NCBI GenBank assembly: GCA_046726655.1
Contig: JBKPAZ010000029.1
Coordinates: 1 to 55,911, forward strand
DNA: 55,911 nt
Direction of reading: 5' to 3'
From: Chloroflexota bacterium
GTDB lineage: Bacteria > Chloroflexota > Ktedonobacteria > Ktedonobacterales > Ktedonobacteraceae
Below are positions 3,870 through 26,737 of the stretch, one piece after another. Position numbers and translations under genes: made by a program. Positions within the stretch are counted from its first letter, which is position 1. The number at the start of each line of letters is the position of its first letter. The notes below the pieces were generated by a model. That model saw only the letters and a program-made list of their open reading frames with translations, did no database searches and was not told the DNA's origin.

Positions 3870-6800
3870 TCATTCCTCAAGTGGATACATTTTCACTACA
3901 GAACCATACATCATTTCCGGTGTCTGGACATAAGCAGAACCGATAGAGAGTTGTTCAATACGTTCAGAAAGGTCTTGTCCTTGACGTCCACGGATGAAAC
4001 CTGAAGCCTTGCGCGACTCAGGATAATTCATGCGGAAGATGACTTTGGTCCCTGCATTACCAAGTACATCCGGGTGAAAGTCTCCTATTCCCTGGCTTGC
4101 AACAATGACCGAGATGCCAAATTTACGTCCCTCTTTCATCAACTTAGGCAAGGTGATATCTTTAGCAAGACGATGAGCTTCATCAAGCACAACTGCTAAC
4201 CGAAGCTGTTTCGCGTATCCCCAACGGAACATATCCTTATAGAGTTTGCGTAATACAAAAGCTCCAGCAGCCATCTGTAGTGTTTCTGCAAACAGATTGT
4301 GTAGATCAATAACTAACCCGCTACGTACAAGAGACAGTAGATCTGCTGATTGTTCTGTTGGACGGAAGAGATCCATCTCCAGTAGTGGGCGGCAACGAGC
4401 AGCAACATTAGTAACATGACGTGTTTGCTCATTTTGCTCAATCCGCTTCAATACATCTTTGAGTGTGGGATAATCCAGCATTTGTAGGGTAGCTATATCA
4501 CTATCATTATTAAACCCGCGCGCCTTATAAGCATCCCTAACTGATGTATAGACAATATCTTTCTGCATCTCACCAAGCCCGGCCACATATGCAAAAATCT
4601 CAGCTACCGCTAATGCATTCGCCATCCATCCTCCCTGTCCACCTTCTCGAGTGCATTCAAAAGGTGAAAATGGAAGCCCTTTCGCAGCGTCAAGCACACC
4701 TGGCTGGATCGCTTTTGTAAAAGTACCCTGTGACTCGGCAAACTGTCCATGAAAGTCCAGGACAAGCGCGGGGACATTTTGCCGCCCTAGTTCAGACAAT
4801 ATACGTGTTATTGTCCATGATTTTCCTTGTCCAGGGATGCCAAGCATGAAAAGATGTGGGCTGCCTTTCACTCCAGGATTCCAGTCCACCTGTTCACCCA
4901 AAGCTTCACCTAGAGGGATAACAACCTCACTGGTATCGATCTGATTTTGAACATCTACAGTCTCGATAATGGAAGTCACCGGTTGCTCATCATGCTGAAG
5001 AGGCTTTGTTTTTTTTCCATGCCCTACAAATTCTCCTTCAGATATATTCGATTGTATCGCATTTGGATCGGGTTGTTGTTCCTCAAAAGCAGCAATGTCT
5101 GTCCAGCTTTGCCCACTCACAGAGCGAGACAGAGTAGGAAAAAGTTCTGTATCATTTTCAAAATCTCTGGCAGTAAGTACAACGACCTTTGCATTGTCAA
5201 GCAATAACGGTTTCCGTGGCTCACTATCCAGACTAACAATGTATCCCTCATAGGTTGGCCTGAAGTCCAGGCCCGTTTTTTCTAATCTTGTGACATGTTC
5301 CAGGAAAGAACCCTCGGTATCGGGATCAAATAAATTGTAGCGGCGAGAACGCTCGAAGTAAAAGCGAAGCACATTTGCCAGATAGGAACGTTGCAGGGCA
5401 CCATCTATACGGTTTTCGTTAAAAAAGCGATTCTTCACCGCTTGCGCTGATCCCTCCATCTGTAAGACCATGGCTTGCGCTAACTCCTCAAGTGGCACAC
5501 GTCCTCTCCTCCATTTTACTTCTATAAAGATCGCATCCACGATGTTTCGTTTCAATGAAACAAGCACAAGATCACAGCGTCTCTCTCCGCGTGTTGGCTT
5601 GCCGGAACTATCCTGCGAGAAGAGGCGAGGATAAATATCTACTGGCACAAGGACAGCCTGCCGCAGCTTTTTATTTCTTTGCAACCATGCAGTAACTACA
5701 CCCAATCCCACTGCCGCCGCCGCACTGGTTGAGGATTCGAGCGCATCTAACGCAAGACGCCCAGAGATCGTTTTCAAGTGATGGAGCAAGCGACTTACAC
5801 TCTGATCAATGCTTGCAAAACCGAGGTCATCCATTGCCTGGCCAAGTAAGGAACCAATCTCTTCATGCCATGCCGTTGTGACCATCATACGATGCCCAAG
5901 CCCCTCCGTAAATTCTGGCGAGTAATCAAGGACATACTTACGAGCAACTTCATTAAGGCCCGGCTGATTGGGAGAATCATAATAGTCAAGAGTGAAAAAA
6001 CGATCCAGGGTAATAACCCAGTTCGTATTTACATGCAGACGTTCCAGCAAGTCGCGCCTTTTTGCTTCAAGACGTACTTCTAGTACTGGTCGAGTATCAG
6101 AAGGACCACCCAGCAGATAACCACCTGCATTCAGCAACGAGGTATGTAATTCCATCAGCGTCTCACTATACCTGGGACCAGCAGGATGTGGCTCCGGTTT
6201 CCTTACCCCTTCTGTAACAATGCGATGTCGCCAGAGCAGCTCCTCATTATTCGATGTGAATTGTGAGATAAAGCGATTGACCAGCCCATAGAGTGAGAAG
6301 CTACTGGTATCGCTCCCTGTTGTATCCAACGATGGAGAGGAGGCAACAATAGAGGGCCGGGTGAAATCCGTCACTACCGCGATATGTGCTTCTGGCGGCG
6401 CGGTTTTCTCTAATTGACTCATTGCGCGGGCGGTCGTTGTCAATCCGGGAAGGAAGTGATCAGAGTTCCTTGCGTAGCGTTGATCGATTTGCTGCTGGCG
6501 TACCTGCTCCAATGCTTGAAACGTACTTTTATGTTCATCTTCGGCATAGGAGATAATCTGAAACGCGGGGAGAGAATACATTTGCTCAAGCTCACCGGCG
6601 GGAGTTTTCTCGGAAAGCATTTTCTTTATGGCTTCTGCAAAGAAGTCGCCCCGGTCAGGGTTGATAAGTGTGGTCACAAGTGTCTCGGCATAAGGATGTA
6701 GCTGATGAAATTTCGCGAGGTGTTCCGCCAATTGATCCGGTTGAATGTCACCGACACCTACCTGGTCAATACCAGTATCTAGAATTACAGCAATATCTCC

Positions 6801-8906
6801 AAAGCGTCGATGGGGATCAGGGACACCCGCCGGAAGAGCTATCCCATGAAAAAAACGCAGATTTTGGAAAAAGGCAAAAGCCTCTGTAGAAGCTGCCGCA
6901 TGGTATGCGAAGGCAGGCACATTTGTCGGTACTAATAAGCGCAAGGCTTGCAGGTCAATGCTCAGTTTACGTTCGCGCAGTGGGTAGTCAAGCAGTTGCT
7001 TCTCCCATTCACGTAGCAGTTGTGTATAGCTGGCAACCCATGCCGCGCGCAATGGATGAGTAGGCAAAATAACAATTGCCTCCTCCACTTGTTCTCCACT
7101 ACCCGTATTCCTGATAAGCAACGAGTCAATCGAGAGCGCATCGCGCAACTCTGACACATCAGCACGATGCGATACGAGTTCATCTATGAGTTCACGATAT
7201 ACCCGGGCATAACGCAGCGCGGAGGCAGCAAGATCAGGCGTCCAATCGACGGCCTCAATGACAGCACGTATATCAGATTGCTTTAGCCGCTTAAAGAACG
7301 TCTCCCGCTCGCGCCAGAATGCCAACCAGAACTCAGAATTTTCCGCTAGCAGGGGATAGGCCGAAAAACTTTGTTTGTCTACGGGCCGCACCTCATCGAC
7401 ATTCAGGATAAAGCAACCGCCTTCACGCGGCTCAGCAAGAACCTGCTTCTCCAAGGCTAAGAGAGTGCTATTCAGCCCAATGTTGAGTATGCGACGATCG
7501 TTCAATCGCAGCCTGAAATACTCAAGGTCTTTATTGATCCATTCCGGCTCTGTTTCGGCAAGTACGGTCTCACGCATATCGACCGCGACTTCGAGCCGAC
7601 CGAAAGCAAGCGTTGGGACAGTTTGTAAACTCTGCCTCGGCGGTTCAGGTAATGAGGAATCAATACCTTTAACCAGGAAAAATTCATGGCTGTTAGCACG
7701 AAAAGTCCCATCCGTTTCCACGTTAATAATCTCACTACCATCCGCACTGAGGGGAGCGATCCTGATACACATGCCGAAGTCAGGTGGCTCGTCAAAATCC
7801 ATATCCAGTTTGATCGTGACAGCTCTCCGACTCCCAGCGACGCTACGCTCATCGATACACTCCTCAAATCCATTTTCGCTGTCGGAGGGTACAATACCAA
7901 CTCGCCAGCGACTCAGTTCCTTTGGTAACACCGGTTCCGTTCTCCAGCGAACAGTGATGGTATCTTTCGCGCCGTAGCGTGCCAGTAAACTGCCCTTTGC
8001 TCCATCTGGCTGCCTGAGATGGCAGTAGGGTTCCACCTCGCCGCTGGCTTTAACAAAAGGTGTTATGCTAACGGAGCGCATATCACTGGGATCAGTTTTG
8101 GGAAATATCCAATGATCAAATGTCAGTGTTTGCTCTTTTGCCAGTTCACGAGACCAGGCGCGCACATCATTCATTGCTCGTCCATGAAAAAACTGAGTCA
8201 AAGCAGTCGTTGTAGACGCATCTACTTTTATACTTTGAATACGTTCGCGCATCGTCGCACCAAGTTTGTTAGGATGCGACAAGCTCAGCACACAATCACG
8301 GTTGACATCGAGTCTTGATACAAATGTATCGCTGCCATCCGCAATGAGTCCAACACGCCAGAGTTCCAGGCCAATCTGTGTGGTTTCCTCTGACTGCATA
8401 CGCCCTAGCAGCTTAAGTGCAAAATCAAGGCGCTGTTCATCGCTCACGTCGAAGAGACCACGCAATCGTGCAAAAACAGCACGGGCTGCAGTCAGAAGTT
8501 CAGGAGAAAGTTGAGCAAGCACACGCTTTAATACGAGCATATGTAAAGTCCGCCCATCGATAAGGGCAAAGGAATTGGCAATTGAACTATAAGCGGCATC
8601 TACGAGATCAGAGGGGATAAATAGACAAAGACGCTCCTGCTTACGATTTCGTATCTCAATCGCCTTGTCTGTCGTAATGAAAATAGTGTCAGCTTTCATG
8701 TGCGCTTCATTTGAAATGAGAATGTGAAATACTACTCCCTGCGCCAGTTGCTGCTGCATAATAAATTGGCAAATGTGCTGCGCTTCAAAACGATCAAGAA
8801 AATCTACCCTGGCACAGTGACCAGGCTCTGTATCTTTTAAACGTTCGATGATTTCATGCGACAGCAATTCTACTTGTAGCATGTCTGTTTGAGATGAATC
8901 TATCAT
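3870..8906 (-). CDS. Giant defence-type protein with a large unassigned N-terminal region, a PD-(D/E)xK-like motif and a C-terminal HerA/FtsK-type P-loop ATPase; DptH (DndH)-like architecture
   Basis: 1678 aa uninterrupted ORF. Walker A LGIPGQGKSWT (K about aa 1362), Walker B LAVVLDEAHRLA, SVIVASQGIGDF. Upstream CDLVLVS-x11-IFIEVKW (D1112, E1129, K1131). Start lies 3 nt after the stop of the preceding gene. Confidence 0.6.
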   Translation of the reverse strand: MIDSSQTDMLQVELLSHEIIERLKDTEPGHCARVDFLDRFEAQHICQFIMQQQLAQGVVFHILISNEAHMKADTIFITTDKAIEIRNRKQERLCLFIPSDLVDAAYSSIANSFALIDGRTLHMLVLKRVLAQLSPELLTAARAVFARLRGLFDVSDEQRLDFALKLLGRMQSEETTQIGLELWRVGLIADGSDTFVSRLDVNRDCVLSLSHPNKLGATMRERIQSIKVDASTTTALTQFFHGRAMNDVRAWSRELAKEQTLTFDHWIFPKTDPSDMRSVSITPFVKASGEVEPYCHLRQPDGAKGSLLARYGAKDTITVRWRTEPVLPKELSRWRVGIVPSDSENGFEECIDERSVAGSRRAVTIKLDMDFDEPPDFGMCIRIAPLSADGSEIINVETDGTFRANSHEFFLVKGIDSSLPEPPRQSLQTVPTLAFGRLEVAVDMRETVLAETEPEWINKDLEYFRLRLNDRRILNIGLNSTLLALEKQVLAEPREGGCFILNVDEVRPVDKQSFSAYPLLAENSEFWLAFWRERETFFKRLKQSDIRAVIEAVDWTPDLAASALRYARVYRELIDELVSHRADVSELRDALSIDSLLIRNTGSGEQVEEAIVILPTHPLRAAWVASYTQLLREWEKQLLDYPLRERKLSIDLQALRLLVPTNVPAFAYHAAASTEAFAFFQNLRFFHGIALPAGVPDPHRRFGDIAVILDTGIDQVGVGDIQPDQLAEHLAKFHQLHPYAETLVTTLINPDRGDFFAEAIKKMLSEKTPAGELEQMYSLPAFQIISYAEDEHKSTFQALEQVRQQQIDQRYARNSDHFLPGLTTTARAMSQLEKTAPPEAHIAVVTDFTRPSIVASSPSLDTTGSDTSSFSLYGLVNRFISQFTSNNEELLWRHRIVTEGVRKPEPHPAGPRYSETLMELHTSLLNAGGYLLGGPSDTRPVLEVRLEAKRRDLLERLHVNTNWVITLDRFFTLDYYDSPNQPGLNEVARKYVLDYSPEFTEGLGHRMMVTTAWHEEIGSLLGQAMDDLGFASIDQSVSRLLHHLKTISGRLALDALESSTSAAAAVGLGVVTAWLQRNKKLRQAVLVPVDIYPRLFSQDSSGKPTRGERRCDLVLVSLKRNIVDAIFIEVKWRRGRVPLEELAQAMVLQMEGSAQAVKNRFFNENRIDGALQRSYLANVLRFYFERSRRYNLFDPDTEGSFLEHVTRLEKTGLDFRPTYEGYIVSLDSEPRKPLLLDNAKVVVLTARDFENDTELFPTLSRSVSGQSWTDIAAFEEQQPDPNAIQSNISEGEFVGHGKKTKPLQHDEQPVTSIIETVDVQNQIDTSEVVIPLGEALGEQVDWNPGVKGSPHLFMLGIPGQGKSWTITRILSELGRQNVPALVLDFHGQFAESQGTFTKAIQPGVLDAAKGLPFSPFECTREGGQGGWMANALAVAEIFAYVAGLGEMQKDIVYTSVRDAYKARGFNNDSDIATLQMLDYPTLKDVLKRIEQNEQTRHVTNVAARCRPLLEMDLFRPTEQSADLLSLVRSGLVIDLHNLFAETLQMAAGAFVLRKLYKDMFRWGYAKQLRLAVVLDEAHRLAKDITLPKLMKEGRKFGISVIVASQGIGDFHPDVLGNAGTKVIFRMNYPESRKASGFIRGRQGQDLSERIEQLSIGSAYVQTPEMMYGSVVKMYPLEE

Positions 8907-8909
8907 GAC

Positions 8910-10616
8910 TCAGACCTCCACCTTCATCATCTCTTTGCCCGCATATGGAGGATGCAAGCGTTGGACCGTAAAATCATCTGAAAGATCACGGAAAATTCCC
9001 ATCTGTCGCAGGCGACGCAGCATGGCACGCAGGTTTTCACGCGCTGCAGCAATATATTCCGCGCCTTCAAATAGTGATGGTGGTCTGTCAATCAGTATGC
9101 CAAAACGCTTCTCCAAGAATTGCAAGAAATCCTGTAAGCGAATTGGTTGCAATTCTTGACCGGTCTGCTCTTGATTGGTCGGCGCAGAAAGTCGTACCGC
9201 TGCTAACTGTACAAACACCGCTAGCAGGTCATTCGTCGGCGCATAGCGCCAGGACTTACGACTGAGCGTAGTACCACGTAGCACTCCTTGCGTTTTCTTG
9301 ATCCCTCCTACACCCGAATACCACTGAATAAAATTCTTAACAGCACCTTCGCGCTGAGCCTCTATCAGGAGGCTTACTACCCGCTCCACATCATCCTCAG
9401 TTGTTCCAACGATTTCATCTAACCAACTAAGAGCCTCCGGGTCATCCTCCTCGCCTTCATTAGTGTTCATTCTGCGAATTTCATCTTCATCATTACGAGC
9501 AGAGGCGGCAATATCTCTACCGAGGATGGGATCATTACGTAACTGGAGCAAGCCCTGCAAATATTCTGCCCCTGAAATATCCGGTCGCAATACGTTCTCA
9601 ACGATGGGTTTGTAGCGCGCGTTGCGTTTTAGTTTCTCCATATAACTGTCTAGCTGACGGAGAAGCAAGTTAGATGACAAGAATTGTTGATAGGTTTCAA
9701 TGTCACGCCGCACACAGGCTTTTGCCATCTCCTGACTATATCCGGCTGAGGATTCTGTAAAATCCAGGTAGAGTTGCGGAGGAGAGATCTTTGTGCTATC
9801 GCACATTGCGATAGGCAAATTATTAGGGTACCGTACCAGTTCATTCACGGCATTGACGAGTTTAAGTGTGTAATTGAACAGCTCAAAATTAATGAGAACA
9901 AGCAAATGATGAGTAAACGCCTGTGTCGGCATCGTCGTATAGTATTCAAAAAGATAACGCAAGAGATCAATCGCAAGCTCTTTAGCAAGCGCGGGGCAGG
10001 GACTAGAAACGTTCTTTTCTCTATTGATCCCCGGCCTGGTATTTTGAAATCCATCTAAAAAAGCAATAGAAAGACGCGTGAGCGTATCTAATCTGGCTTC
10101 TCCATCATATGTACCACCTAAATCAGGAATGCTGCCAATTATCACTCCACGTCCAAAAACCCTTTTCACAAAACTTCGTAACGCATCGTCTGCCCCCAGA
10201 TACTCGCGCAACGCCTGATAAATAAATGTATCAGCGCTCCTTTGACGGCTCCCCTGAGCAGGGAAGCCTGGTTTGTGTGCAAGAATCGTATAAGGAACAA
10301 TAGATGTGATTTGCTCATTAACATGAGAACGACCTACACTACCTGTCGTAATCAGTGTTGTTCGCACAAGGCGTTCTATTACTTTTCGACCTTCAGCATC
10401 ATTAAATCCCTCAAGATCTGAATGGTTAGATAAGGCATCAACGAATTTGGCAATAGTTTTAGGGTCATTCGTCTGCCTCGCTTTTCCCCTCCCTTGAGAT
10501 AAAATGGTGAAGAAAAGAGAAGGGAGGAATAGGTCAATATCAAAATCATTCATATTTATTGTAGAGATACGTGGAAATTTTACCCCAACGATATCCTTTG
10601 GTAGCTTGATCTTCAT
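8910..10616 (-). CDS. Middle subunit of the three-gene operon, with no recognisable catalytic motif; DptG-like by position only
   Basis: 568 aa ORF. ATG lies 15 nt after the stop of the upstream gene, with AGGAAGGA as SD. Stop lies 3 nt before the next ATG. Confidence 0.4.
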   Translation of the reverse strand: MKIKLPKDIVGVKFPRISTINMNDFDIDLFLPSLFFTILSQGRGKARQTNDPKTIAKFVDALSNHSDLEGFNDAEGRKVIERLVRTTLITTGSVGRSHVNEQITSIVPYTILAHKPGFPAQGSRQRSADTFIYQALREYLGADDALRSFVKRVFGRGVIIGSIPDLGGTYDGEARLDTLTRLSIAFLDGFQNTRPGINREKNVSSPCPALAKELAIDLLRYLFEYYTTMPTQAFTHHLLVLINFELFNYTLKLVNAVNELVRYPNNLPIAMCDSTKISPPQLYLDFTESSAGYSQEMAKACVRRDIETYQQFLSSNLLLRQLDSYMEKLKRNARYKPIVENVLRPDISGAEYLQGLLQLRNDPILGRDIAASARNDEDEIRRMNTNEGEEDDPEALSWLDEIVGTTEDDVERVVSLLIEAQREGAVKNFIQWYSGVGGIKKTQGVLRGTTLSRKSWRYAPTNDLLAVFVQLAAVRLSAPTNQEQTGQELQPIRLQDFLQFLEKRFGILIDRPPSLFEGAEYIAAARENLRAMLRRLRQMGIFRDLSDDFTVQRLHPPYAGKEMMKVEV

Positions 10617-10631
10617 ATGATTTCCTTCCTG

Positions 10632-13600
10632 CTATTGCACCCTCACTCGCACAATTTTATTATCACGTTGGGTAACAAGATGAACGCGGCGCTGATTTTC
10701 AATTAAAACCAGGTCACGAGTTTCACGTAGCAGTAGAACATCTTTGAAGAGTTTCAGGTCTTCAAGTAGTGGTTTAAATTCTGGTGCTGTAGGTTGCAAT
10801 CCATCGGCCATTCGCATAAGTAGCTCGAACAGGTCAATGGTAATCTCAAGGCGTGGTAGACCAGAATAATGCTTTAATACGACCATCTCAGGCAGCCTCT
10901 CGACCATAGAAATACCCTGTGGATGCTCTACCAGGAACTCAAATTCCTCCAGGGGAAGTTGTTTGAGGACAACCAACTGCTGATCAATTGAGGCGCTGAC
11001 CTTCACACTGAGTTTTCCTTGGGGCACATCTTCTATGACACCATCCGAACGCAGAATGCCGAGGATTACTACTTCGCGGAGTTTTCGCACCTCCACATCA
11101 TCAAGACGTCCATCAAGCAGCATCATGAAGAGTTTAGAGTATTCGTATGGGAGCAATGCCAACCAGCGCACTTTCGGTATAACAGAACCATCCTGAGCAG
11201 CCACAACAGGTTTACCAGCATCAAAGTACAAACGCCGTTTGAATGCTGCCATCCACGTAGGTTCGTTCTCAAAGCGTTGAAAGGGGAGATCTTTTTTATC
11301 GGCAAAGAGAAGGCTGCGCTGTTCAGCATCCCTCGCAGTTTGATGAAAATGCAGGAAGCGATCAAGGTGCGGATGCGGGAAACGCGCGGGGTCGAACGGC
11401 ATTAGATCAGCCAGCAATTCATCATGTTGTTCAATCGGAGCAAATGCAGATTGCCAGTAAGCAAAATTTATGAGCGATGCGCCTGCTTCTGCTCCATGTC
11501 GCGCAGCATGCACTTGTTCACAGCTCCAGTTACCAGTAATCAGATAAGCAAGAGCCGAACGTAGATCACGCATGGTAGTATGCCGCTGTCGTCGTAGATG
11601 CGAGAGCAAGAAGAGAAACTCAAGGCGTTGTATGACTCTTGGTTTTCGTAGTTCGAGAGCGTTATTTCTCAAGGGACAGACCACCTGGGCCGCGCAATCC
11701 TCACAAATCTTCCATTTGTCGGCTGCGACCAGACTTTGCAACACTTGCCGGAAAACAGAATCTCCCTCCGCATCCGGTAAACTTACAAAGGCCCGCTTTT
11801 TCAGGTCTATGACCCATACGTCTAGCTCTTCTACATCACTGGCATCTCTTGCTTTCTCTAGCTGCACTGATAGCCAGGGGAAACGATCTTGATGACGTAT
11901 AAAATAGTCAGCGAGACGCCCATCGTTGATAGCGATCAGTACGGTCAAATTGACAGCAGGTTCATTGCTCCCTTCCAACCCCTGCAGTTTCCCGGTGAGT
12001 TGTTGGTCCGCACTTAGACTTTGATGTGATTCTGATGCATCGTAGCAACTGCGATAGTGGTGTCCATCCCATTCCCATTCCCATCCACTCGAATCTTGTT
12101 GAATAACCGTTGCCTGTTGTTCCAGCAACTTTTGCTGCACCTTTTCCAGGAAGGCCGTTTTTCCATCCCCTGGGTTTCCACAGAGGAATACCACTTTTGG
12201 CCTCAGATCAAAAATGGCAGGTAATAACTGCTCATCCAGCGCGGTAAGTACATAGGTTTCCCGCACAAATTCTGAATCCAATCCCCGGTTGTTCTTATTA
12301 CCTATTTCACTATTGCGATAGAGACTACGTACATCATTCACCCAGGAGTTGGTATACTCTCGCAAAGCTTCTGTCTGTAGTGGTTCTTCGACAGCCAGAA
12401 GAGCCGTTTGGAGTTCTTGCCGCATTTGAGCAACAGTAGCTGGACGCTCAGTTGGATTATTTGAGACCGCTCTTAACAATACTGCCGCTATTCTACGCAT
12501 CTTTACATCTATAAACTGCTCCAGCGGGATAAGGCTCCGTTGAACGCCTTCTGTAATACTAAAGGGCATATAGCCAAAAAGCGATTTAAATAAAACTACG
12601 CCAATTGCATAACGATCACACGTCAAAGGAAAAGCAGAAGAAGGAGAAGCCGAAAAGGTCTCCGGGGGGAGATACAGCGGAGTCCCAGCAGCCTGGCCTG
12701 GAGTGCCCTGCCGAATAGCAAAGCCAAAATCGATTAGTACCGGACGATTGTCAGCCTCACGGAGAATAATATTTGCCGGTTTAATATCCCGGTGAAGCAG
12801 TTGTTTTTCTTCGAGTGCTTCTACCGCATTCAATAAACCCTGTGCCAATGACCACCAGCGTTCTAACGGCCAGGGAAACTCCATCTCAATCTGTTGCAAT
12901 GTCGGACCAGCAATATACTCCATTTTGACATGCACATCATTTTGTGGCGGATAAATATCAAAAATACGCGGCAGATATCTGCTACTGATGTTTCTCATAG
13001 CGTTAAACTCAGCGGCAGCCTGCTGCAACACCTCTGAAGGACTGATGTACTGTTTCAGAGCAAATAAGCCGAGTGACTCAAAGTCATTATCACTCGCAAG
13101 ATAGGTGTATGCTGTTGTTCCACGTCCAAGCAAACGATGTACTCTGTAACGCTTATCAAGCAATCTTCCCTCGACCGTGTCGGCTTGTATTTCTATGCGC
13201 AGACGACGAGCAAGATCATTAAGGCGTGTAGAAATTTCTTTTGCTGAAGGAGGCGTTGTTCCCTTTGCAGGAGTGACGACCTGTCTGAAAAGCGCGCCGA
13301 GTTCGTTCGCCAGTTCGGCAGAGAGAAACGAAGTCCAACGTGGTTGTTGGGGAAAGATTACATCACTTTCCACATTGGCACGAATATTGGAGAGCGAAAC
13401 ACCTGATAGACGTTCCAAAAAGACCAAGGCCAGGCTATATGTATCTGTTTCGGCAGTGGCATAGCCATAGCCAATAGCAAGCTCTAAAGCAGCATACGGG
13501 TCTTCGATAGAAAGAGTATCGAGTGATGGAGCAATAGAGTTTGTGCCAACACGAGCGGCGTAAAAATTTGTAAAGACAACTTTGGGTGGTTGAATACTCT

Positions 13601-13949
13601 GAACATAAATCGTGTCTGGCCCAATAGCTCGGTGCAAAACGTTATGAGTATGGATTTGATCTAGAGCCTTAAAACAAGCAGCGGTCAATAATAGTTCTTG
13701 TACAAATTCCTCGCGCGTCTCTGGCTGGGGATAGATACTCAATGGTTTTCCGGATGGAGGCATAATCGGCAAGACGAGAAAATCATCAGACCACCTGAAA
13801 GGAATATTGACCAGAGGTACAAAACCAGTTGAAAATAATTTTTGCAAGGCCATACATTCATGCATATAAAAATCATAAAGCTTCTGTGAGTCAAGCGGGT
13901 CTTTCGTTAGATCATATACCATCAATTGGAGCGTCTTGTCCGGGCCCAA
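10632..13949 (-). CDS. Tandem pseudokinase plus Hanks-type Ser/Thr kinase fused to a C-terminal P-loop NTPase (DptF/DndF-like module)
   Basis: 1105 aa. Kinase: LGRGTTAYTY (G-loop, about aa 274), FALKQY, LLHRDIKPANIIL (D388), LIDFGFA, GTPLYLPPE. N-terminal degenerate copy: LHRAIGPDTIYV, TNFYAARV. C-terminal half: Walker A FLCGNPGDGKTAF (K597) and C749-x2-C752-x5-C758. The annotated start is TTG; see the upstream ORF at 13922-14032. Confidence 0.7.
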   Translation of the reverse strand: MGPDKTLQLMVYDLTKDPLDSQKLYDFYMHECMALQKLFSTGFVPLVNIPFRWSDDFLVLPIMPPSGKPLSIYPQPETREEFVQELLLTAACFKALDQIHTHNVLHRAIGPDTIYVQSIQPPKVVFTNFYAARVGTNSIAPSLDTLSIEDPYAALELAIGYGYATAETDTYSLALVFLERLSGVSLSNIRANVESDVIFPQQPRWTSFLSAELANELGALFRQVVTPAKGTTPPSAKEISTRLNDLARRLRIEIQADTVEGRLLDKRYRVHRLLGRGTTAYTYLASDNDFESLGLFALKQYISPSEVLQQAAAEFNAMRNISSRYLPRIFDIYPPQNDVHVKMEYIAGPTLQQIEMEFPWPLERWWSLAQGLLNAVEALEEKQLLHRDIKPANIILREADNRPVLIDFGFAIRQGTPGQAAGTPLYLPPETFSASPSSAFPLTCDRYAIGVVLFKSLFGYMPFSITEGVQRSLIPLEQFIDVKMRRIAAVLLRAVSNNPTERPATVAQMRQELQTALLAVEEPLQTEALREYTNSWVNDVRSLYRNSEIGNKNNRGLDSEFVRETYVLTALDEQLLPAIFDLRPKVVFLCGNPGDGKTAFLEKVQQKLLEQQATVIQQDSSGWEWEWDGHHYRSCYDASESHQSLSADQQLTGKLQGLEGSNEPAVNLTVLIAINDGRLADYFIRHQDRFPWLSVQLEKARDASDVEELDVWVIDLKKRAFVSLPDAEGDSVFRQVLQSLVAADKWKICEDCAAQVVCPLRNNALELRKPRVIQRLEFLFLLSHLRRQRHTTMRDLRSALAYLITGNWSCEQVHAARHGAEAGASLINFAYWQSAFAPIEQHDELLADLMPFDPARFPHPHLDRFLHFHQTARDAEQRSLLFADKKDLPFQRFENEPTWMAAFKRRLYFDAGKPVVAAQDGSVIPKVRWLALLPYEYSKLFMMLLDGRLDDVEVRKLREVVILGILRSDGVIEDVPQGKLSVKVSASIDQQLVVLKQLPLEEFEFLVEHPQGISMVERLPEMVVLKHYSGLPRLEITIDLFELLMRMADGLQPTAPEFKPLLEDLKLFKDVLLLRETRDLVLIENQRRVHLVTQRDNKIVRVRVQ

Positions 13950-14032
13950 CTTGCGGGCAGTTGTTGTAGAGCTTTTGCAGCTCTGCGCTCTCCTTCAGTT
14001 GCAAATGGCCCCGCGCTAACCAACTGAGCCAT
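13922..14032 (-). CDS. 36-codon ORF with strong SD overlapping the kinase gene start in another frame (leader peptide, or true N-terminus separated by a frameshift)
   Basis: GAAGGAGAG-N5-ATG at 14032. Translation by hand: MAQLVSAGPFATEGERRAAKALQQLPASWARTRRSN*. The kinase ORF is in the -1 frame relative to it and is open from codon 13 of this ORF. Confidence 0.3.
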   Translation of the reverse strand: MAQLVSAGPFATEGERRAAKALQQLPASWARTRRSN

Positions 14033-15039: not shown

Positions 15040-16248
15040 TTACTTTGAGGAACCTCTACGCGAGAGATTCTCGACCATCCAGCGAGCTACCGTGGCATTG
15101 ATCTCCCCAGGCACAGGTTGCGGTCCGTGTGGGAGACCCCTGTGATGAGCGGCCAGGTATGCGAGCGATTGAGCCTGTAAAGCGAAACCTAGATCCATCG
15201 TCTCTATTGGATTGCCTCCGCCACCTGCGAGGTTAAGCATCTCACCCTGGGCGAGCAGCGTAATACGCCTTCCATCTTCAAGTGTGAAAAGTTCGACCCA
15301 CTCACGGAAGCGTTCAACGGTAACCGCCCTCCGTCTTAGTTCAGCGAGGTCAATCTCCCATGAAAAATGACCTGCATTCGCAAGAATGGCCCCATCGGGC
15401 AAGCGGTTAAAGGACTCAGCGGGAATGGCTCCTGGTCTTCCTGTCGCAGTGAAGAATACTTCGCCAATGCCTATCGCTTCCTCAAGTGTTGTGACACTCA
15501 TCCCATCCAGTACCGCCTCAAGCGCCCGGATTGGGTCTAATTCAACGACCGTCACCTGACCACCTAACCTGCGCAGACAGCGTGCAATACCGCGCCCAAC
15601 TGAGCCGTAGCCAAAGACCACGAACCGCTTGGATTGTACTAACAAGTTCGTCTCACGCATAAAGCCCTCGACGATCGTTGGTCCAACCCCATGCTCATTC
15701 TCCATAATGAGCTTGAGCGGACTATCATTGATCACGATAATAGGGAATGATAGTGCGCTGCGCAGTTCTCCCCGCAAGCGGTTGGCACCGGTCGTTGTCT
15801 CCTCGGTACCGGCGATGACATGGCCTCGACCTGGATGAGTAAGATAGGTCGCGACGAGGTCAGCTCCGTTATCCAGGAAGAGATGTGGATCATACGACAA
15901 TACCTGACCTATATTCTCTTGATGTCTGGTGCTATCGTCCTCCTGTTGTCCAAAGACAATGACCCCGGTATGCTTTAGAGCGGCTGCAACATCGTTCTTC
16001 GTCGTACCTGGACTGCCGGTAATGACAACTTTAGCCCCTCCTGCTTGCAGGACAGAACAAAGCACTGCCGTCTTAGGTTCGACATGTAAGCACATGCCAA
16101 TTGTAAGCCCGGCGAAAGGCTTCGTCTCGCTAAACTGTTCCCGCAGCCTCTGAAGGAGTCGCTGATGGAGTTCGGCCCAGCGAATCTTCTGAAAGCCTTG
16201 CGCCACTAGATGATGATCAGGAATGCCCTGATCTTGTTTATCGATCAT
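15040..16248 (-). CDS. ahcY: Adenosylhomocysteinase (short, about 400-aa type)
   Basis: 402 aa. NAD-binding VVFGYGSVGRGIARCLRRLGGQVTVVELDPIRALEAVLDGM and GHFSWEIDL, matching SAH hydrolase family patterns. Confidence 0.7.
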   Translation of the reverse strand: MIDKQDQGIPDHHLVAQGFQKIRWAELHQRLLQRLREQFSETKPFAGLTIGMCLHVEPKTAVLCSVLQAGGAKVVITGSPGTTKNDVAAALKHTGVIVFGQQEDDSTRHQENIGQVLSYDPHLFLDNGADLVATYLTHPGRGHVIAGTEETTTGANRLRGELRSALSFPIIVINDSPLKLIMENEHGVGPTIVEGFMRETNLLVQSKRFVVFGYGSVGRGIARCLRRLGGQVTVVELDPIRALEAVLDGMSVTTLEEAIGIGEVFFTATGRPGAIPAESFNRLPDGAILANAGHFSWEIDLAELRRRAVTVERFREWVELFTLEDGRRITLLAQGEMLNLAGGGGNPIETMDLGFALQAQSLAYLAAHHRGLPHGPQPVPGEINATVARWMVENLSRRGSSK

Positions 16249-19843: not shown

Positions 19844-20617
19844 ATGCCCACATTAGAACTTGAGACCATTCGCTGCGAACTTGATGGAAACCTGGGCCGA
19901 CTGCGCCTCAATCGACCAGAAGCCCTCAACGCCGCCAACTGGGCATGGGTACAGGACCTGGTTACCGCTACCGACTACTTTGCTCAGAGCCAGGAGACTC
20001 ACGTGATCATCGTCAGTGGCGAAGGTCGTGCCTTTTGCAGCGGTCTTGATAAAAAAGAGTTGTCTCAAGGCAACCTTACTCGTGAATGGTTCGCAACCTG
20101 GGAAAAAGGCGTCACTGGACTGGCTAACCTTGATGCCATCACCATTGCCGCTATTCAGGGTTTTTGTCTTGGTGGTGGGCTGCAAGTTGCCCTGGCATGC
20201 GACTTACGTATTGCCACAACCAATGCCATACTCAGCATCCCTGCCGTTAGAGAAGGACTCGTTGCTGCTCTCGGTCCCATGCGGCTCGCCAGGATCATTG
20301 GAGTTGGTCCTGCTAAACAACTCTGTTTCTTAGGTCACCGTTTTACAGGTGAAGAAGGATTGGCGCTGCGCATTATTCATGAGGTCTGTCCACCTGAGAG
20401 CCTCGAAACACGCTCGCTGGCAATGGCTGAAGAACTCCTGAGTATTCCCTTTACAGCGCTTAAGCACACCAAGCGCCAGATCGACCGCTCCTTCGACCTG
20501 GATTTTGAGACACTCATGGCTGAATGGGTTGATGCCGCTGATGATTGCCTGCGTTCGCCTGAGCACCAGGCAGTCATGGAGGAGTATCGCGAAGAGTTAG
20601 CCCGGCGTGACAAATAA
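19844..20617 (+). CDS. Enoyl-CoA hydratase/isomerase (crotonase) family protein
   Basis: Start at the ATG after AGGAG. GEGRAFCSGLDKKE and GFCLGGGLQVALACDLRIA. Confidence 0.8.
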   Translation: MPTLELETIRCELDGNLGRLRLNRPEALNAANWAWVQDLVTATDYFAQSQETHVIIVSGEGRAFCSGLDKKELSQGNLTREWFATWEKGVTGLANLDAITIAAIQGFCLGGGLQVALACDLRIATTNAILSIPAVREGLVAALGPMRLARIIGVGPAKQLCFLGHRFTGEEGLALRIIHEVCPPESLETRSLAMAEELLSIPFTALKHTKRQIDRSFDLDFETLMAEWVDAADDCLRSPEHQAVMEEYREELARRDK

Positions 20618-22481
20618 GTTGAGCGAAAAACAGGCGCGCTTGCGCGCTCTTGAAAATCAGATCAAAAGGTTAAAAAGACGCATTGCCATTCTGGACCAAC
20701 GGAGCAATCGTATTGGCTGGCTACGTGTAGCCATCTTTTTTACAGGCGCATTGCTCAGCATCCTGGCTTACTTCCTTGAGGGTTGGTGGCTTTTACTGAC
20801 CGGCGCAGTGCTAACGCTCTCCATCTTCAGCATCGTTGCGTATTTTCATGCCCGCATAAACAGGAGCATTACACGGCACAAAATCTGGATGCAAATCAAA
20901 TCAGCTCACGTAGCCCGCATGAAGCTCGATTGGAGTGGTATCCCTCAGGTACAATTACCAGAATCCCCACCTGATCATCCTTTTGCAACCGATCTCGACA
21001 TCACAGGAAAACACTCGCTGCATCACCTCATTAATACAGCCATCTCATCCGAGGGAAGCCAACGATTACAAGATTGGTTAATGAATACCGCCCCAGACAT
21101 GCAAGTTATTCGCAAAAGGCAGGCGCTTATACGGGAGCTTACCCCTTTAACTATCTTTCGCGACAAACTTCTCATGAAATCTCTGCTCGCATCAAAAAAT
21201 ACAGCCAGTGCATGGGGGGGAAAAACGTTACTGCACTGGCTGAACGAGCAAACTACACCCAAATCGCTACTCCCACTACTATTCATATCCTTGTTCTTAT
21301 CAGTGCTCACGATCACCCTTTTTGTACTGAACATATTTCATCTTATTCCTCAGTATTGGGTATTTATGTTGTTACTAACCATCCTCTTCCTTTTCGTTAC
21401 AAAAAATCAGCGGGGCGATCTTTTTGAGGACGCTTACCAACTAAGAGATGCGTTCGCACAACTCAGTCTCATTTTTGAGTACCTGGAGACATATCGCTAC
21501 GGCAAGAACCTGAACCTGAAAGCTTTGTGCGAACCTTTTTATCAGGATCGCGAACATCGCCCCTCGTCGCTTTTGAAAAAGATCGCTCGCACTGCTGCAG
21601 CAGCCACTTTGCAAAGGAACCTGCTGCTGTGGATCATTGTGAATGTACTGGTACCGTGGGACTTCTACTTTTCATATCGCTTTAATCAGTACAAATCCCA
21701 GATAGCAGCGCGCTTACCTGCATGGCTGAATATTTGGCTTGAGCTCGAGGCTCTTAACTCCCTGGCAAATTTCGCCTACCTGAACCCTGAATATATTCTG
21801 CCCGAGGTCGTTTCTTGTCAAAATCAAGACAACCTACCATTGCGAGTTTGCGACCTGGGGCATCCCCTCATACCAGAGGGGCAGAAAGTCGTAAATGACT
21901 TCGCCATCTATAAACTGGGTGAAATTAACATCATTACTGGCTCAAACATGACAGGCAAAAGCACTTTTCTGAGAACGCTAGGCATTAACCTTTGCCTTGC
22001 ATATGCTGGTGGGCCAGTCAATGCAAGTCTGTTTCAGACCGCTCTTTTCAGGGTGTTTACCTGCATAAAAATTAGCGACTCCGTAACCGAAGGCTATTCC
22101 TACTTCTATGCCGAAGTCAAACGCCTGAAAGCGCTCCTGACAGAGGTTGAATCTGCCAATAAATTGCCCGTTTTCTTTCTCATCGACGAGATATTTAAAG
22201 GCACGAACAACCGCGAGAGGCGCATTGGCAGTGAATCCTACATTTCGGCGCTTGTTGGACAAAACTGTCTCGGCGTAATATCGACACACGACCTGGATCT
22301 GGTAACGTTGGCAGCTAAGTTACCCGACATCAGGAATTATCATTTCAAAGAAGATGTTCTTGATGGAGAGATGGTGTTTGACTACATATTGCGAGAAGGG
22401 CCATGCCCAACGACGAACGCGCTAAAGATCATGCAAATGGAGGGATTGCCTGTTGATCTAAAAGGCCTGAAAGATGAATGA
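20607..22481 (+). CDS. MutS-related protein with an N-terminal membrane region plus MutS domain V ATPase, and no mismatch-binding domain
   Basis: 624 aa. Hydrophobic helices at about aa 35-80 and 215-265. ATPase motifs ITGSNMTGKSTFLRT, FLIDEIFKGTN and ISTHD. Confidence 0.75.
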   Translation: MTNKLSEKQARLRALENQIKRLKRRIAILDQRSNRIGWLRVAIFFTGALLSILAYFLEGWWLLLTGAVLTLSIFSIVAYFHARINRSITRHKIWMQIKSAHVARMKLDWSGIPQVQLPESPPDHPFATDLDITGKHSLHHLINTAISSEGSQRLQDWLMNTAPDMQVIRKRQALIRELTPLTIFRDKLLMKSLLASKNTASAWGGKTLLHWLNEQTTPKSLLPLLFISLFLSVLTITLFVLNIFHLIPQYWVFMLLLTILFLFVTKNQRGDLFEDAYQLRDAFAQLSLIFEYLETYRYGKNLNLKALCEPFYQDREHRPSSLLKKIARTAAAATLQRNLLLWIIVNVLVPWDFYFSYRFNQYKSQIAARLPAWLNIWLELEALNSLANFAYLNPEYILPEVVSCQNQDNLPLRVCDLGHPLIPEGQKVVNDFAIYKLGEINIITGSNMTGKSTFLRTLGINLCLAYAGGPVNASLFQTALFRVFTCIKISDSVTEGYSYFYAEVKRLKALLTEVESANKLPVFFLIDEIFKGTNNRERRIGSESYISALVGQNCLGVISTHDLDLVTLAAKLPDIRNYHFKEDVLDGEMVFDYILREGPCPTTNALKIMQMEGLPVDLKGLKDE

Positions 22482-22892: not shown

Positions 22893-24911
22893 CTATACTT
22901 CAGGCCCTGGTAGGTGAGAGACAAGTATATTTTGATTCAACATATTCATCGGCACAATGCCAAATTCAGAAAGCGCTTGCATCTCCAGGTCACTGCTAAA
23001 GAACTGCATATAGGCCTGGAATGCTGCTGAACCATCGCCTTGCGTATAGAAATGCTCAATACTCCAAAACGCATAGGTGCCCTGAAGTAATGTTTGCGTA
23101 CCGGGCGCTACGCCATCGATGGCTAGTATCTTTACACCTGTTTCCTGCGCCACCGCCAGGGGTACATAGCTAATCGCTCCCTGTGTCTGAGAAACTGCCT
23201 GCGCGACCGAAGCAGGCGAGTCCTGCTTGATTCTGATCCCTGCTACATGCTCTGTCACACCATTCAGCACAAATGTTTGAAAAATTGTGGTGATACTGGC
23301 TGCCGTAGGAGGAAGAATGACCGTGATAGCTTCGTCAGAGCCACCCACCTGGGCCCAATTCGTGATTTGCCTCTGGTAGATCTCCTGTATCTCGGCGCTG
23401 CTCAATCCACTCACCTCTACGTCAGGGCTAACAATCAGTGCGTACAGTAATGCTCCCATCGGGTGATCGGTCAGGTTTCGCACGGGGGTAGCAGTTAGGT
23501 CAAAGCCTGCGACATCAATACGGCTATGCTGCAATTTGTTCAGGCTAGCACGGCTTCCATCTGCTTGTAATGAGATTGTCAATCCTGGACAGTGGTTCGC
23601 ATAATCAGTATCGATTTGTTGTAGCAGGGGCTGCAAATTCAGAGAACTATCTAGTGAAAGTGTTCCAGGCGTACAAACGACGGGAGGAGCCCCAGTAGCT
23701 GTGGGAACAACAGTGCCATTTATTATCGGCGTTTGTGATTGGCCTCTTGTGGGCGTGATGTGAACTTGCGGTATAGAGTTGCTGCCTTCTTTAGATGGGA
23801 TTGAAGGTGTTACACCACCTGAAGCAGTCGTAGGGGTAGGTTTGCCCAATTTCGTTCCCACGACGCTTCCCTGACTGTCGCTATGAAACGGGAGACCAGG
23901 AATATCTTGTAGATGCAGTGGCAAGGACGAGAAGAAAAAAAGGGTACCCACCAGTCCAAATAAAACCAGTAAGATGGAGAGCAAAGAGAGGGCACGGCTC
24001 CATGTAAAAGACATTCGTCGTCGAGAACGTATCTCAATGCGGCGTTGAGGTTTGACAGAAACGACAGGTGAGTTATCAGAGGCAACGGCTGCCAGCAGCG
24101 CTTCAGCTAGAGCACTCGCGTTTGGGAAGCGCGCCTCTGGGCTTTTAGCGAGAGCCACGCGTACGACAAGCTCCACTGACTCTGGGAGATCGGGGCGAAA
24201 TTGACGCAATGAGGGAATAGCTTCATTTGCATGTTTCAGAGCAATCTCGCCCTTAGTCTCACCATCGTAAGGAAGCTGTCCCGTCAACAAGCGATAGAGG
24301 AGCACACCTAATGCATAAATATCACTGGCAGGAGAAAGCATGCCAACCACCTGCTCTGGGGCTGTATATGCCTGATTTCCCTCTTCAATTTGCGCTACTA
24401 AGGGATCGAATTCCTGGTGGATTCGCTTCATACTAAAGTTGGTGAGAAGGATATGCTGATCACTTTGTACCAGGACACTTGATGGTTGGATATTTCCATG
24501 TACGATATGTTGTTCATGCACGTATTGTAGCGCTGCGCATAGTTGAGTAATACAATGCACAACCAGGGGCATCTGTATAAAGCGTTCCTGGTTTTCAGAC
24601 TTCTCTAGAACCTGCTCGACCGTCTCTGCCTCTGCAAACTCTGTTACACTAAAGAGCAAGTCATCACCTGCCCCAAACTCGAGCAGAGGCTGTATATGCT
24701 CATGATGGCAATGCCATACTTTCTCCACTTCTGAGGCAAAGTGCTCCTGGAATGCGGTAGGATCAGGAAACGGTGGTCGAAATAAGCGCAACACTACGTC
24801 AGACCCGCCTCGAGTTGTGGGACGTGCGCGATACGTTTCCACCATTCCTTCTCGTCCCAAACACTCAAGCAAAAAATAATTGCCTACCATCACCCCAGCG
24901 AGTTCCACCAT
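22893..24911 (-). CDS. Membrane-spanning pseudokinase fused to a PstS-like periplasmic binding domain
   Basis: 672 aa. The kinase fold has degenerate catalytic residues (VVLRLF, HGNIQPSS, TNFS). One TM helix (ALSLLSILLVLFGLVGTLFFF). C-terminal PBP-like region (ITNWAQVGGSDEAITVI, GAISYVP, YAFW). Confidence 0.7.
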   Translation of the reverse strand: MVELAGVMVGNYFLLECLGREGMVETYRARPTTRGGSDVVLRLFRPPFPDPTAFQEHFASEVEKVWHCHHEHIQPLLEFGAGDDLLFSVTEFAEAETVEQVLEKSENQERFIQMPLVVHCITQLCAALQYVHEQHIVHGNIQPSSVLVQSDQHILLTNFSMKRIHQEFDPLVAQIEEGNQAYTAPEQVVGMLSPASDIYALGVLLYRLLTGQLPYDGETKGEIALKHANEAIPSLRQFRPDLPESVELVVRVALAKSPEARFPNASALAEALLAAVASDNSPVVSVKPQRRIEIRSRRRMSFTWSRALSLLSILLVLFGLVGTLFFFSSLPLHLQDIPGLPFHSDSQGSVVGTKLGKPTPTTASGGVTPSIPSKEGSNSIPQVHITPTRGQSQTPIINGTVVPTATGAPPVVCTPGTLSLDSSLNLQPLLQQIDTDYANHCPGLTISLQADGSRASLNKLQHSRIDVAGFDLTATPVRNLTDHPMGALLYALIVSPDVEVSGLSSAEIQEIYQRQITNWAQVGGSDEAITVILPPTAASITTIFQTFVLNGVTEHVAGIRIKQDSPASVAQAVSQTQGAISYVPLAVAQETGVKILAIDGVAPGTQTLLQGTYAFWSIEHFYTQGDGSAAFQAYMQFFSSDLEMQALSEFGIVPMNMLNQNILVSHLPGPEV

Positions 24912-24913
24912 GA

Positions 24914-26461
24914 TTATCCTCTCATCTGCAATTGGTGTTGTTCTATACTAACCCGTGCCCAGATTACAATCTTACCTGTGTGCATTGCTGTAGGAGCGTA
25001 ATTTATTGCGCCCTCTGCGCCAGTACTACCACGACTGGATGGATCAGGGAAGAAGAATGAAGAAAGGAGCGCAGCAATTAGGCCAATCAAAAGTAAGATG
25101 ACAACCAGAATCGGCAATAACTTTTTCAAACGCGAATCGGAAGCCTTCTCCCTCTTCTTCTGTTCTCCACCAGAAGCAGGCTGCGCTGGCGGAAAAGTAT
25201 TATCTGGGGGCGTTTCAGGAACTAATGGTTTGCTATGCAAATACCCGGTGGCAGTAGATGGCATTGAACCCGCAGTTTCGTTCCCTATGGGAGACCATTC
25301 AACAGGATCTGTTGACCAGAACATATGTGTCCCGCTACCTTCGGTCTCCTGCAAGAAATTAGTCTTGCGGCTCAACGTTCTCTCTGATTCTTTATCGCCC
25401 TCAACAGGTGTAGCCTCAAGCGATGCCTGGTTAAAAGACGGCTCAAAGACCGGAGCAGGCGAATCGGATTGCCCGCCTGGAATGGTAGGGACAGTAGGAG
25501 ACGTTGAAGAAGACTGAGCAACGTAAGCAGGCACTGGAGTCTGCAGACCACCACCTGCAGTAGATGCCTGATTGGGTGTAAGTTGGCGTGTCACCGGTAA
25601 AACAGATTTAGCGACTGGGGAGGCAACGGGAGCAACACTTATCGCCACCGCCAGTGCATTGCTAAATTCTTCCGCGGAAGCAAAGCGATCGTCCGAGCGC
25701 TTCTTTAAAGCCAGGTGTAGCACCCCATCAACAGCATCCGAGATGCTCGGATCCAGCGAACGTGCCGAAGGTACTTGCTGTCGAACATGCTTGAGCAATA
25801 CTTCGACCGGCGTTTGTCCTGTAAAGGGGGGCTGCCCTGTAAGAATGCGAAATAACAGTACACCAAGCGAGTAGATATCGCTGCCTCGTCTTAACACTCC
25901 CAATGATTGTTCTGGCGCTGCATATTCAGCTGAACCCCAGCCAATCCGCGTGAGCGATTGCTGGCTATCGTCATAACCTCGAACAATACCAAAATCGGAA
26001 AGCAGCATACGGCCATCTGCTCCAACAAAGATGTTCGTAGGTTTGATATTGCCATGTATCACATCACTATCATGTGCATATTGAACAGCACTGCACAACT
26101 GTTGCATGATTGGCAATGCCTGCATTGCAGAGAACTTTCCACCAACACGTATCAAGAGATCTTCGAGCGTACCCGTCGTCACGAGCGGTGTAACAGAGTA
26201 AAGGAGGCCCTCACCTTCGCCGAATTCAAGAAATGGCAAAATATTTGGATGCTCAAATTGACCTATTTTTTCCGCTTCGGTCATAAAATATTCACGGAAG
26301 GACTCACGCTGAGCATAGCCAGGACGGAACACCTTCACCGCCACTTCATAACTTCCCTCTCCAGTCTGGCGAGCACGATACACATCCGCTATTCCTCCCC
26401 TACTGATACATTGCAGCAGGAGATAATCACTTAACATTACACCTTCAAGAAGATCAGACAT
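24914..26461 (-). CDS. Hanks-type kinase-like membrane protein with an atypical HGN catalytic loop
   Basis: Start at MSDLLEG. AVKVF (K43), VIHGNIKPTNIF (N138 in place of Asp), LSDFGI, EYAAPE. C-terminal TM helix LLPILVVILLLIGLIAALL. Stop lies 2 nt before the next gene start. Confidence 0.7.
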   Translation of the reverse strand: MSDLLEGVMLSDYLLLQCISRGGIADVYRARQTGEGSYEVAVKVFRPGYAQRESFREYFMTEAEKIGQFEHPNILPFLEFGEGEGLLYSVTPLVTTGTLEDLLIRVGGKFSAMQALPIMQQLCSAVQYAHDSDVIHGNIKPTNIFVGADGRMLLSDFGIVRGYDDSQQSLTRIGWGSAEYAAPEQSLGVLRRGSDIYSLGVLLFRILTGQPPFTGQTPVEVLLKHVRQQVPSARSLDPSISDAVDGVLHLALKKRSDDRFASAEEFSNALAVAISVAPVASPVAKSVLPVTRQLTPNQASTAGGGLQTPVPAYVAQSSSTSPTVPTIPGGQSDSPAPVFEPSFNQASLEATPVEGDKESERTLSRKTNFLQETEGSGTHMFWSTDPVEWSPIGNETAGSMPSTATGYLHSKPLVPETPPDNTFPPAQPASGGEQKKREKASDSRLKKLLPILVVILLLIGLIAALLSSFFFPDPSSRGSTGAEGAINYAPTAMHTGKIVIWARVSIEQHQLQMRG

Positions 26462-26737
26462 GCGACACCCCACAATGGTACGTCTCGGCTGGTAGTTTTG
26501 CAGGCGCAATAGACCGAACCCAACAAAACCTGGTATCGGTAATACATCGAACTAAACGAGGAGAGATTCTCTTTTCGGAGATTTAACAGACTAAGACGAC
26601 AAAAAGAGGCATTTTCTGAATAAGTTCATCGAGGCGAAACTAAAAGTACTATGCAAGCCACAACACCTCTCGCTCCATCTTCACCATCACAGCCGGCACT
26701 TTTTCCGACAATAGACACGCCGCCAGGAGATACCAGA

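Follow-up and report, generated by a model that had tools for sequence, protein, structure and literature searches.

A 55,911-nucleotide (nt) stretch of a metagenome-assembled genome (MAG) from the Ktedonobacteraceae (contig JBKPAZ010000029.1; hereafter the window) encodes a 1678-amino-acid (aa) protein, H (P0001), which we judge, with a probability of about 80%, to be the large subunit for restriction, of the MAD8/DndH family, in an anti-phage module of three genes (F–G–H). The H gene occupies nt 3870–8906 on the minus strand, as do all parts of the module described below; it is intact by open reading frame (ORF) call and translation, and full-length homologues measure 1655–1750 aa. Two parts of the protein carry this reading. 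The first, at aa 1040–1250 (nt 5157–5789), is a predicted PD-(D/E)xK restriction-endonuclease-fold domain, assigned from AlphaFold modelling, the VIA-align structure search and conservation. The second, at aa 1330–1678 (nt 3873–4919), is a HerA/FtsK-type P-loop ATPase, assigned from Pfam, PDB and hhalign matches and from invariant motifs. Between them lies a variable, low-confidence linker (aa 1251–1329, nt 4920–5156), with a predicted local distance difference test (pLDDT) score of 31–48 at the model end. Mean identity reaches its highest value, 0.74, in aa 1040–1250; it is 0.71 in the ATPase, 0.49–0.63 across the N-terminal domains and 0.18 in the linker. The initial annotation of this DNA had proposed a DNA-degrading or translocating effector, a role that the predicted fold, the conserved residues and the ATPase matches all favour.

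The candidate nuclease motif is a D...ExK peptide spanning aa 1107–1135 (nt 5502–5588). Its predicted catalytic core (nt 5514–5573), picked out by motif and conservation, comprises D1112 (5571–5573), E1129 (5520–5522) and K1131 (5514–5516); the initial annotation had numbered these residues correctly, and all three lie inside the interval of nt 5511–5580 that it gave. The bare pattern is no better than chance and means nothing alone. In its loose form, D-x(8–30)-[DE]-x-K, it has three start sites in H as against 11.4 ± 4.4 in shuffled sequences, so independent support for the nuclease reading was needed. If a hydrophobic strand context is required as well, D1112 is the only site left in H, and about 1% of 2000 shuffled sequences contain such a version.

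The three residues are conserved across the family, both among close relatives and in a broader set of 126 sequences. A word-indexed search returned 177 relatives of H; among the 120 listed, all the named ones are Ktedonobacteria, and some of these carry the JGI label DptH. In 43 of these relatives, all from Ktedonobacteria, neither D1112 nor K1131 varies, and at least 90% have E1129. A HMMER scan with aa 1000–1340 against 1.84 billion cluster representatives gave 349 matches, most of them proteins of 1600–1750 aa in which the matching part lies at about aa 950–1300. We aligned the window protein with cluster representatives, some only about 26% identical to the query, to give the 126 sequences. 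D1112 is retained in 125 of these, E1129 in 120 and K1131 in 120 (with arginine in a further four); retention is similarly high for P1088 (125), D1090 (119), R1133 (117), Q1149 (114) and D1168 (125). The conserved set in the domain is P1088-x-D1090, R-C-D1112, E1129-V-K1131-x-R1133 and Q1149.

An AlphaFold2 model of aa 1000–1270, built from a 43-row alignment (pLDDT 81, predicted template-modelling score 0.81), has an alpha-beta-beta-beta-alpha-beta core with pLDDT 85–95. The modelled elements are a helix at 1059–1077, strands at 1085–1088, 1113–1119 and 1122–1132, a helix at 1139–1161 and strands at 1214–1224 and 1234–1244. In this model D1090 comes after strand 1, D1112 stands at the opening of strand 2, and E1129 and K1131 lie within strand 3. 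VIA-align, a structure search independent of Foldseek that we ran over 48,161 chains, placed McrC first (Z 7.4), followed by Shedu SduA (7.2), HamA (6.7 and 6.6) and AF1548 (6.0); lower rows included DdmD, LlaBIII (Z 5.2), SdaI, NucS, PaqCI, BsmI, Cfr10I, NucC, Can2 and Hjc. Almost every one of the first 35 rows (Z 4.3–7.4) is a PD-(D/E)xK nuclease. The weak rows of a Foldseek search with the same model were also mostly nucleases (FokI, Bse634I, HamA, McrC and Shedu). Structural similarity to solved PD-(D/E)xK members is therefore of moderate strength. A restriction-endonuclease fold for aa ~1040–1250, which the initial annotation had left to structure prediction and on which AlphaFold and VIA-align agree, is supported by the near-uniform family identity of the VIA-align list and by the placement of the residues, no single Z being decisive.

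The C-terminal domain is assigned, from its motifs and matches, to the HerA/FtsK clade of P-loop ATPases. The Walker A (GIPGQGKS, aa 1356–1363) and Walker B (AVVLDE, aa 1571–1576) motifs lie within nt 3870–4890, as do R1594 (EGRKFG, arginine finger) and Q1605 (VASQG, sensor-1 glutamine), so that the Walker and sensor motifs ascribed by the initial annotation to the last ~340 aa are indeed there. All four features, Walker B as VLDE (aa 1573–1576), are invariant in the 43 homologues. The assignment to the HerA/VirB4/FtsK clade likewise stands on matches to Pfam (DUF87, 26.2 against a cut-off of 23.2; TrwB_AAD_bind, 37.5 against 20.5) and to PDB entries for HerA (4d2i) and DptH's C-terminal domain (7es4). 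An hhalign comparison with Priestia DptH gave a probability of 97.7, covering only aa 1333–1684. As a separate observation, a distant homologue of 1710 aa (P0251) combines the MAD8-like N-terminal architecture and the nuclease domain with an ATPase that is FtsK-type (NCBIfam FtsK, 232 bits) and not HerA-type, which fits the published phenomenon of 'HerA/FtsK capture'.

For the N-terminal ~1100 aa, in which the initial annotation could assign no motif, a different picture emerged: the region holds a methyltransferase-fold domain with eroded motifs and further domains, as published for DndH (PMC10853773). An AlphaFold model of aa 1–1000 (76-row alignment, pLDDT 88) contains, in order, an alpha/beta domain (~29–132), a helical region (135–258), an all-beta domain (278–430), an alpha+beta domain (433–520), a helical segment and a Rossmann-type domain. 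The first two, a helix–turn–helix (HTH)-like helical region preceded by the alpha/beta domain, bear the MAD8 N-terminal signature (aa 29–258, nt 8133–8822), as placed by the alignment to NCBIfam NF047742 and by AlphaFold secondary structure. The third (aa 278–430, nt 7617–8075) is beta-sandwich-like by DSSP of the model, with pLDDT mostly 85–95. At aa 700–1000 (nt 5907–6809) VIA-align points to a class I S-adenosylmethionine (SAM)-dependent methyltransferase fold: all 50 of the 50 listed rows for the N-terminal model were methyltransferases or methyltransferase-fold GRAS domains, aligned at aa ~700–1000 with Z 8.8–11.1. A motif scan of the H protein sequence found neither [DNS]PP[YFW] nor GxGxG methyltransferase motifs; in the domain, strand 1 is followed by NPDRG and strand 4 by DFTRP. 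Because the catalytic motifs are missing, we predict that this is an inactive, catalytically eroded methyltransferase-fold domain. Foldseek of the whole 1000-residue model returned only long, low-TM (~0.09) alignments to Brr2 helicases, which could not be read domain by domain.

Comparison with a reference MADS operon placed H within a known family. This operon, on a Piscinibacter plasmid, is complete, with MAD2 to MAD8 all over the NCBIfam cut-offs; its MAD8 (1858 aa) scores 230.9 bits. The Ktedonobacteria profile aligned with the Piscinibacter MAD8 by hhalign with probability 100 and an E value of 1.5e-52 over 1136 columns (aa 19–1205). A hidden Markov model (HMM) of the nuclease domain scored 185 bits against the same protein and 119 bits against a Rhizobium homologue, with the P-x-D, D and E-V-K elements kept in both (PLDAH...RRTDLALF...LVEVK in Piscinibacter). 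Against canonical Priestia DptH the HMM scored 7 bits, D...EVK falling at the corresponding place in the alignment, and the NCBIfam scan listed no match of H to TIGR03237. At the level of sequence, then, H is assigned to the MAD8 branch of DndH-like proteins, its nearest family being MAD8 and not canonical DptH.

Directly upstream of H, on the same strand, stand the genes of its putative partners. The G gene (8910–10616) encodes a 568-aa MAD7 protein (DndG/SspG-like) that scores 475 bits with NCBIfam MAD7 (cut-off 410) and matches the PADLOC mad7 and SspG models; a gap of 3 nt separates it from H. Fifteen nucleotides upstream of G is the F gene (10632–13949), 5'-truncated, whose product combines a pseudokinase, a Ser/Thr kinase and a DndF/SspF-type, MAD6-like P-loop core, as recognized by Pfam Pkinase and by PADLOC SspF and mad6. 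Its core scores 102 bits with PADLOC SspF and weakly with DptF, and the whole protein scores 270 bits with NCBIfam MAD6 (cut-off 460). Intact F proteins of relatives are mostly 1250–1420 aa long. A remnant of 36 codons of the original F start, with a ribosome-binding site, lies at 13922–14032 and ends in a TGA that overlaps an in-frame ATG of F (TGATG). By tblastn, aa 1–30 of the relatives' F proteins map to 14032–13943, and the sequence from aa ~210 onward resumes at 13946 in a different frame. The part in between corresponds to the N-terminal PglW/NERD-like domain of MAD6. Stop–start coupling at TGATG is possible and might still permit translation of the truncated F; the deletion and frameshift could also be an artefact of MAG assembly.

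We compared the neighbourhoods of 80 loci related to this one, drawn from Chloroflexota, Actinomycetota, Armatimonadota, Planctomycetota and Acidobacteriota, with flanks that reach ~2 kb upstream from F and ~9 kb downstream from H. The triad of kinase-bearing F, G and H is the constant unit: all three were detected in ~55 of the 80 loci, and most of the others are on short contigs or have F, G or H split or fused. The covered flanks contained no homologues of mad2–5, except for weak MAD2 and MAD5 matches downstream of H in one locus (L059). No mad1–5 gene was found in the window, and neither DndC, DndD, MAD2, MAD3 nor MAD4 was found over cut-off in the MAG, which is 69% complete. Nor were MAD2 and MAD3 found in the five large genomes of triad-bearing relatives that were searched. 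For these searches the PADLOC mad2 model proved non-specific, with 40 matches in the genome under study and matches in all 14 of 14 control genomes, and was replaced by the NCBIfam MAD2 and MAD3 models and PADLOC mad4.

What stands upstream of the triad varies: BrxL, a radical SAM protein and an IS3 transposase were seen, as was, in Actinomycetota, a UvrD-like helicase. In Actinomycetota (L055:151–1818, L064:1–1749, L068:187–1758 and ~20 other loci) an ORF of 520–580 aa, whose C-terminal part has helicase motifs like those of UvrD/PcrA, immediately adjoins the start of kinase-bearing F on the same strand; it might be a fourth member of the triad, specific to that lineage. Four loci (L021, L030, L046 and L079) have H or F split into several ORFs, such as the 297 + 1454 aa of H in Thermogemmatispora tikiterensis, and decay of the triad seems frequent. 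A different, methylase-linked arrangement is found on a Rhizobium anhuiense plasmid (L089, 7488–22879), where the genes for a NERD-kinase F, G and H precede two genes for DNA methyltransferases and one of the phospholipase D family; genes for a UvrD helicase and a PD-(D/E)XK nuclease are nearby.

By analogy with work on DndFGH (PMC10470545, PMC10853773), for which a 2:2:1 complex that binds, translocates and nicks DNA has been described (PMC10470545; the initial annotation had cited nicking and translocation correctly), the module might act as follows. F (a kinase-fused DndF/MAD6-like P-loop protein), G (MAD7, a DndG-like DNA-binding protein) and H would assemble on DNA, binding through winged HTH, target-recognition and dead-methylase domains, with the dead methyltransferase and target-recognition domains serving recognition. 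The HerA/FtsK ring would translocate DNA with ATP, and the nuclease domain would nick or cut it, with a metal held at D1090, D1112 and E1129 and with K1131 as the catalytic lysine. In this genome no methylase or phosphorothioation genes were found linked to the module, and with the NERD nuclease domain of F gone it may be weakened or in decay.

Several results weigh against H being the nuclease subunit of such a module. Every VIA-align row of the nuclease domain has Z below 8, a range that can mean a shared arrangement only; Foldseek of the nuclease model against the PDB gave nothing at E <= 0.001; and the domain has no match to any Pfam nuclease family. The NCBIfam MAD8 model NF047742 scores 51.9 bits on H (aa 29–227), below its cut-off of 175, and the PADLOC DndH models match the ATPase only (aa 1301–1611). 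By comparison with all relatives, the F gene lacks codons ~31–209 (~180 codons) and its frame is shifted, so the complex may not assemble normally. Finally, with a MAG that is only 69% complete, little weight attaches to the failure to find modification genes.

The alternative that survives best keeps all of these domains as described and holds that the module is a decaying remnant here, with H no longer used as a nuclease-translocase. We consider this unlikely, although it has the truncation of F in its favour: the NERD-like N-domain is gone, and the original start is in another frame. The split H or F genes of the four relatives and the failure to find MAD2, MAD3, MAD4, DndC and DndD in the assembly point the same way. 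Yet H and G are full length and stop-free, the catalytic and ATPase residues of H are all intact, and so are the kinase and P-loop parts of F, which the TGATG overlap could still allow to be translated; the deletion could also be an assembly artefact. Moreover, the five large related genomes also lack detectable MAD2 and MAD3, which indicates that this lack is normal for the clade.

A second alternative accepts the PD-(D/E)xK fold and treats the domain as a non-catalytic module for DNA binding or sensing, with cutting left to another nuclease, for instance F's NERD domain or, where the MADS operon is complete, MAD3–MAD4. Inactive restriction-endonuclease and helicase domains are common in DndH-type systems (PMC10853773), the neighbouring methyltransferase domain is itself predicted to be inactive, intact relatives have a second nuclease-like domain (NERD) in F, and MADS has a separate MAD3–MAD4 nuclease (PMC13662399). 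What speaks strongly against it, and makes it improbable in our view, is that the acidic and lysine set is kept in 95–99% of the 126 representatives and that the domain is the most conserved of H, the opposite of the eroded methyltransferase motifs; in addition, the restriction-endonuclease domain of DndH has been judged to keep all key catalytic residues (Krishnan et al., PMC10853773). It is barely credible that D...ExK arose by chance in a domain with some unrelated fold: the loose pattern is indeed not enriched, and Pfam and Foldseek (E <= 0.001) gave no match, but the predicted strand topology sets the residues as in PD-(D/E)xK enzymes, the structure search returned such nucleases almost exclusively, and the residues are near-invariant across distant relatives. 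We therefore retain the reading of H as the probable restriction subunit of an F–G–H module.

A broader and more tentative proposal, which is more probably wrong than right, is that the triads of kinase-bearing F, G and H in Chloroflexota, Actinomycetota, Armatimonadota and other phyla form a free-standing MAD6–7–8/DndFGH branch that restricts DNA without a dedicated modification partner. The dead methyltransferase and target-recognition domains of H could then tell self from non-self by sensing a DNA state or an unlinked mark of the host, or kinase signalling could do so, and the UvrD-like protein might be a fourth subunit in Actinomycetota. If this were true, the NERD-less copy in the window would show that the nuclease of H alone suffices.

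Elsewhere in the window, ahcY (adenosylhomocysteinase; 15040–16248, minus strand) is located upstream of the operon, at a distance of 1.1 kb and in the same orientation; there is no DNA methyltransferase nearby, and the position of ahcY is probably coincidental. Two adjoining genes for PknB-like Ser/Thr kinases of 672 and 531 aa occupy 22893–26509 (minus strand), the larger with a C-terminal PstS-like phosphate-binding domain. A 624-aa protein encoded at 20607–22481 (plus strand) has only the C-terminal ATPase region of MutS (MutS/KamC-like), and its gene comes after those for thiamine-diphosphate decarboxylase subunits and enoyl-CoA hydratase. The operon has a GC content of 46–50%; we rejected base composition as evidence for an island, because the GC content of other parts of the window is similar.

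These results correct the annotation of a family of 1678-aa 'ATP-binding proteins' that is common in Ktedonobacteria: they are predicted to be MAD8/DndH-type nuclease-translocases, with D1090, D1112, E1129 and K1131 as candidate catalytic residues. A single nuclease motif common to the MAD8 of MADS and to DndH links the two. In these lineages the F–G–H triad normally comes without mad1–5 or dnd modification genes. The locus in the window is a partly degraded, modification-orphan member of the MAD8/DndH-type systems.

Among known systems, MADS of Pseudomonas aeruginosa SMC4386 is the closest by sequence. H shares with the MAD8 of the Piscinibacter MADS operon homology over aa 19–1205 and the PxD...D...EVK motif, and with MADS the upstream genes for MAD7 and a kinase-bearing MAD6. 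MADS has eight genes, whereas the locus of H has no mad1–5 (regulator, methylase, OLD-like ATPase/Toprim and specificity subunit) in the window; the window proteins also score below the cut-offs of the MAD8 and MAD6 models, and the window MAD6 lacks its N-terminal domain. Defence by MADS needs each of mad6, mad7 and mad8 (bioRxiv 10.1101/2023.03.30.534895), and MAD7–MAD8 has been termed an ATPase–nuclease module (PMC13662399).

DndH/DptH of Escherichia coli B7A and Salmonella (7ES4) resembles H in its length of ~1700 aa, in its order of dead methyltransferase, restriction endonuclease and C-terminal HerA/FtsK domains, and in its F–G–H operon. The published architecture of DndH comprises an inactive SWI2/SNF2 C-domain, HTH, beta-sandwich, target-recognition domain, inactive DAM, restriction endonuclease and HerA/FtsK (Krishnan et al. 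2024, PMC10853773), and the methyltransferase–endonuclease–ATPase order of H matches it. For DndF, variants with tandem inactive and active kinases have been described, as in the F subunit here, as have kinase/NERD fusions (PMC10853773). The difference is that only the ATPase of H is detectably similar to DndH/DptH by sequence and that no dndC or dndD was found in this genome; on these two grounds a canonical, phosphorothioation-linked Dnd system was rejected.

The highest-scoring structural matches to the nuclease domain came from McrBC, Hachiman HamAB and Shedu, whose nucleases are coupled to NTP-driven motors or act alongside them; they follow the same logic of a PD-(D/E)xK nuclease with a motor ATPase. 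They differ in having no sequence similarity to H, in using an AAA+ GTPase or a superfamily 2 (SF2) helicase as the motor, and in having the nuclease and the motor on separate proteins. The type IIG and ISP enzymes, such as LlaBIII and BpuSI, with the latter of which DndH has been compared (Krishnan et al., PMC10853773), likewise unite methyltransferase-fold and PD-(D/E)xK domains in one polypeptide with target-recognition domains, which in H are putative; in H, by contrast, the methyltransferase lacks catalytic motifs, the domain order is different and a HerA/FtsK motor takes the place of SF2. The combination of a restriction endonuclease with HerA/FtsK in DndH-type proteins and the MAD7–MAD8 ATPase–nuclease module have both been described already, and H is not a new kind of system but a further, MAD8-like member of this group.

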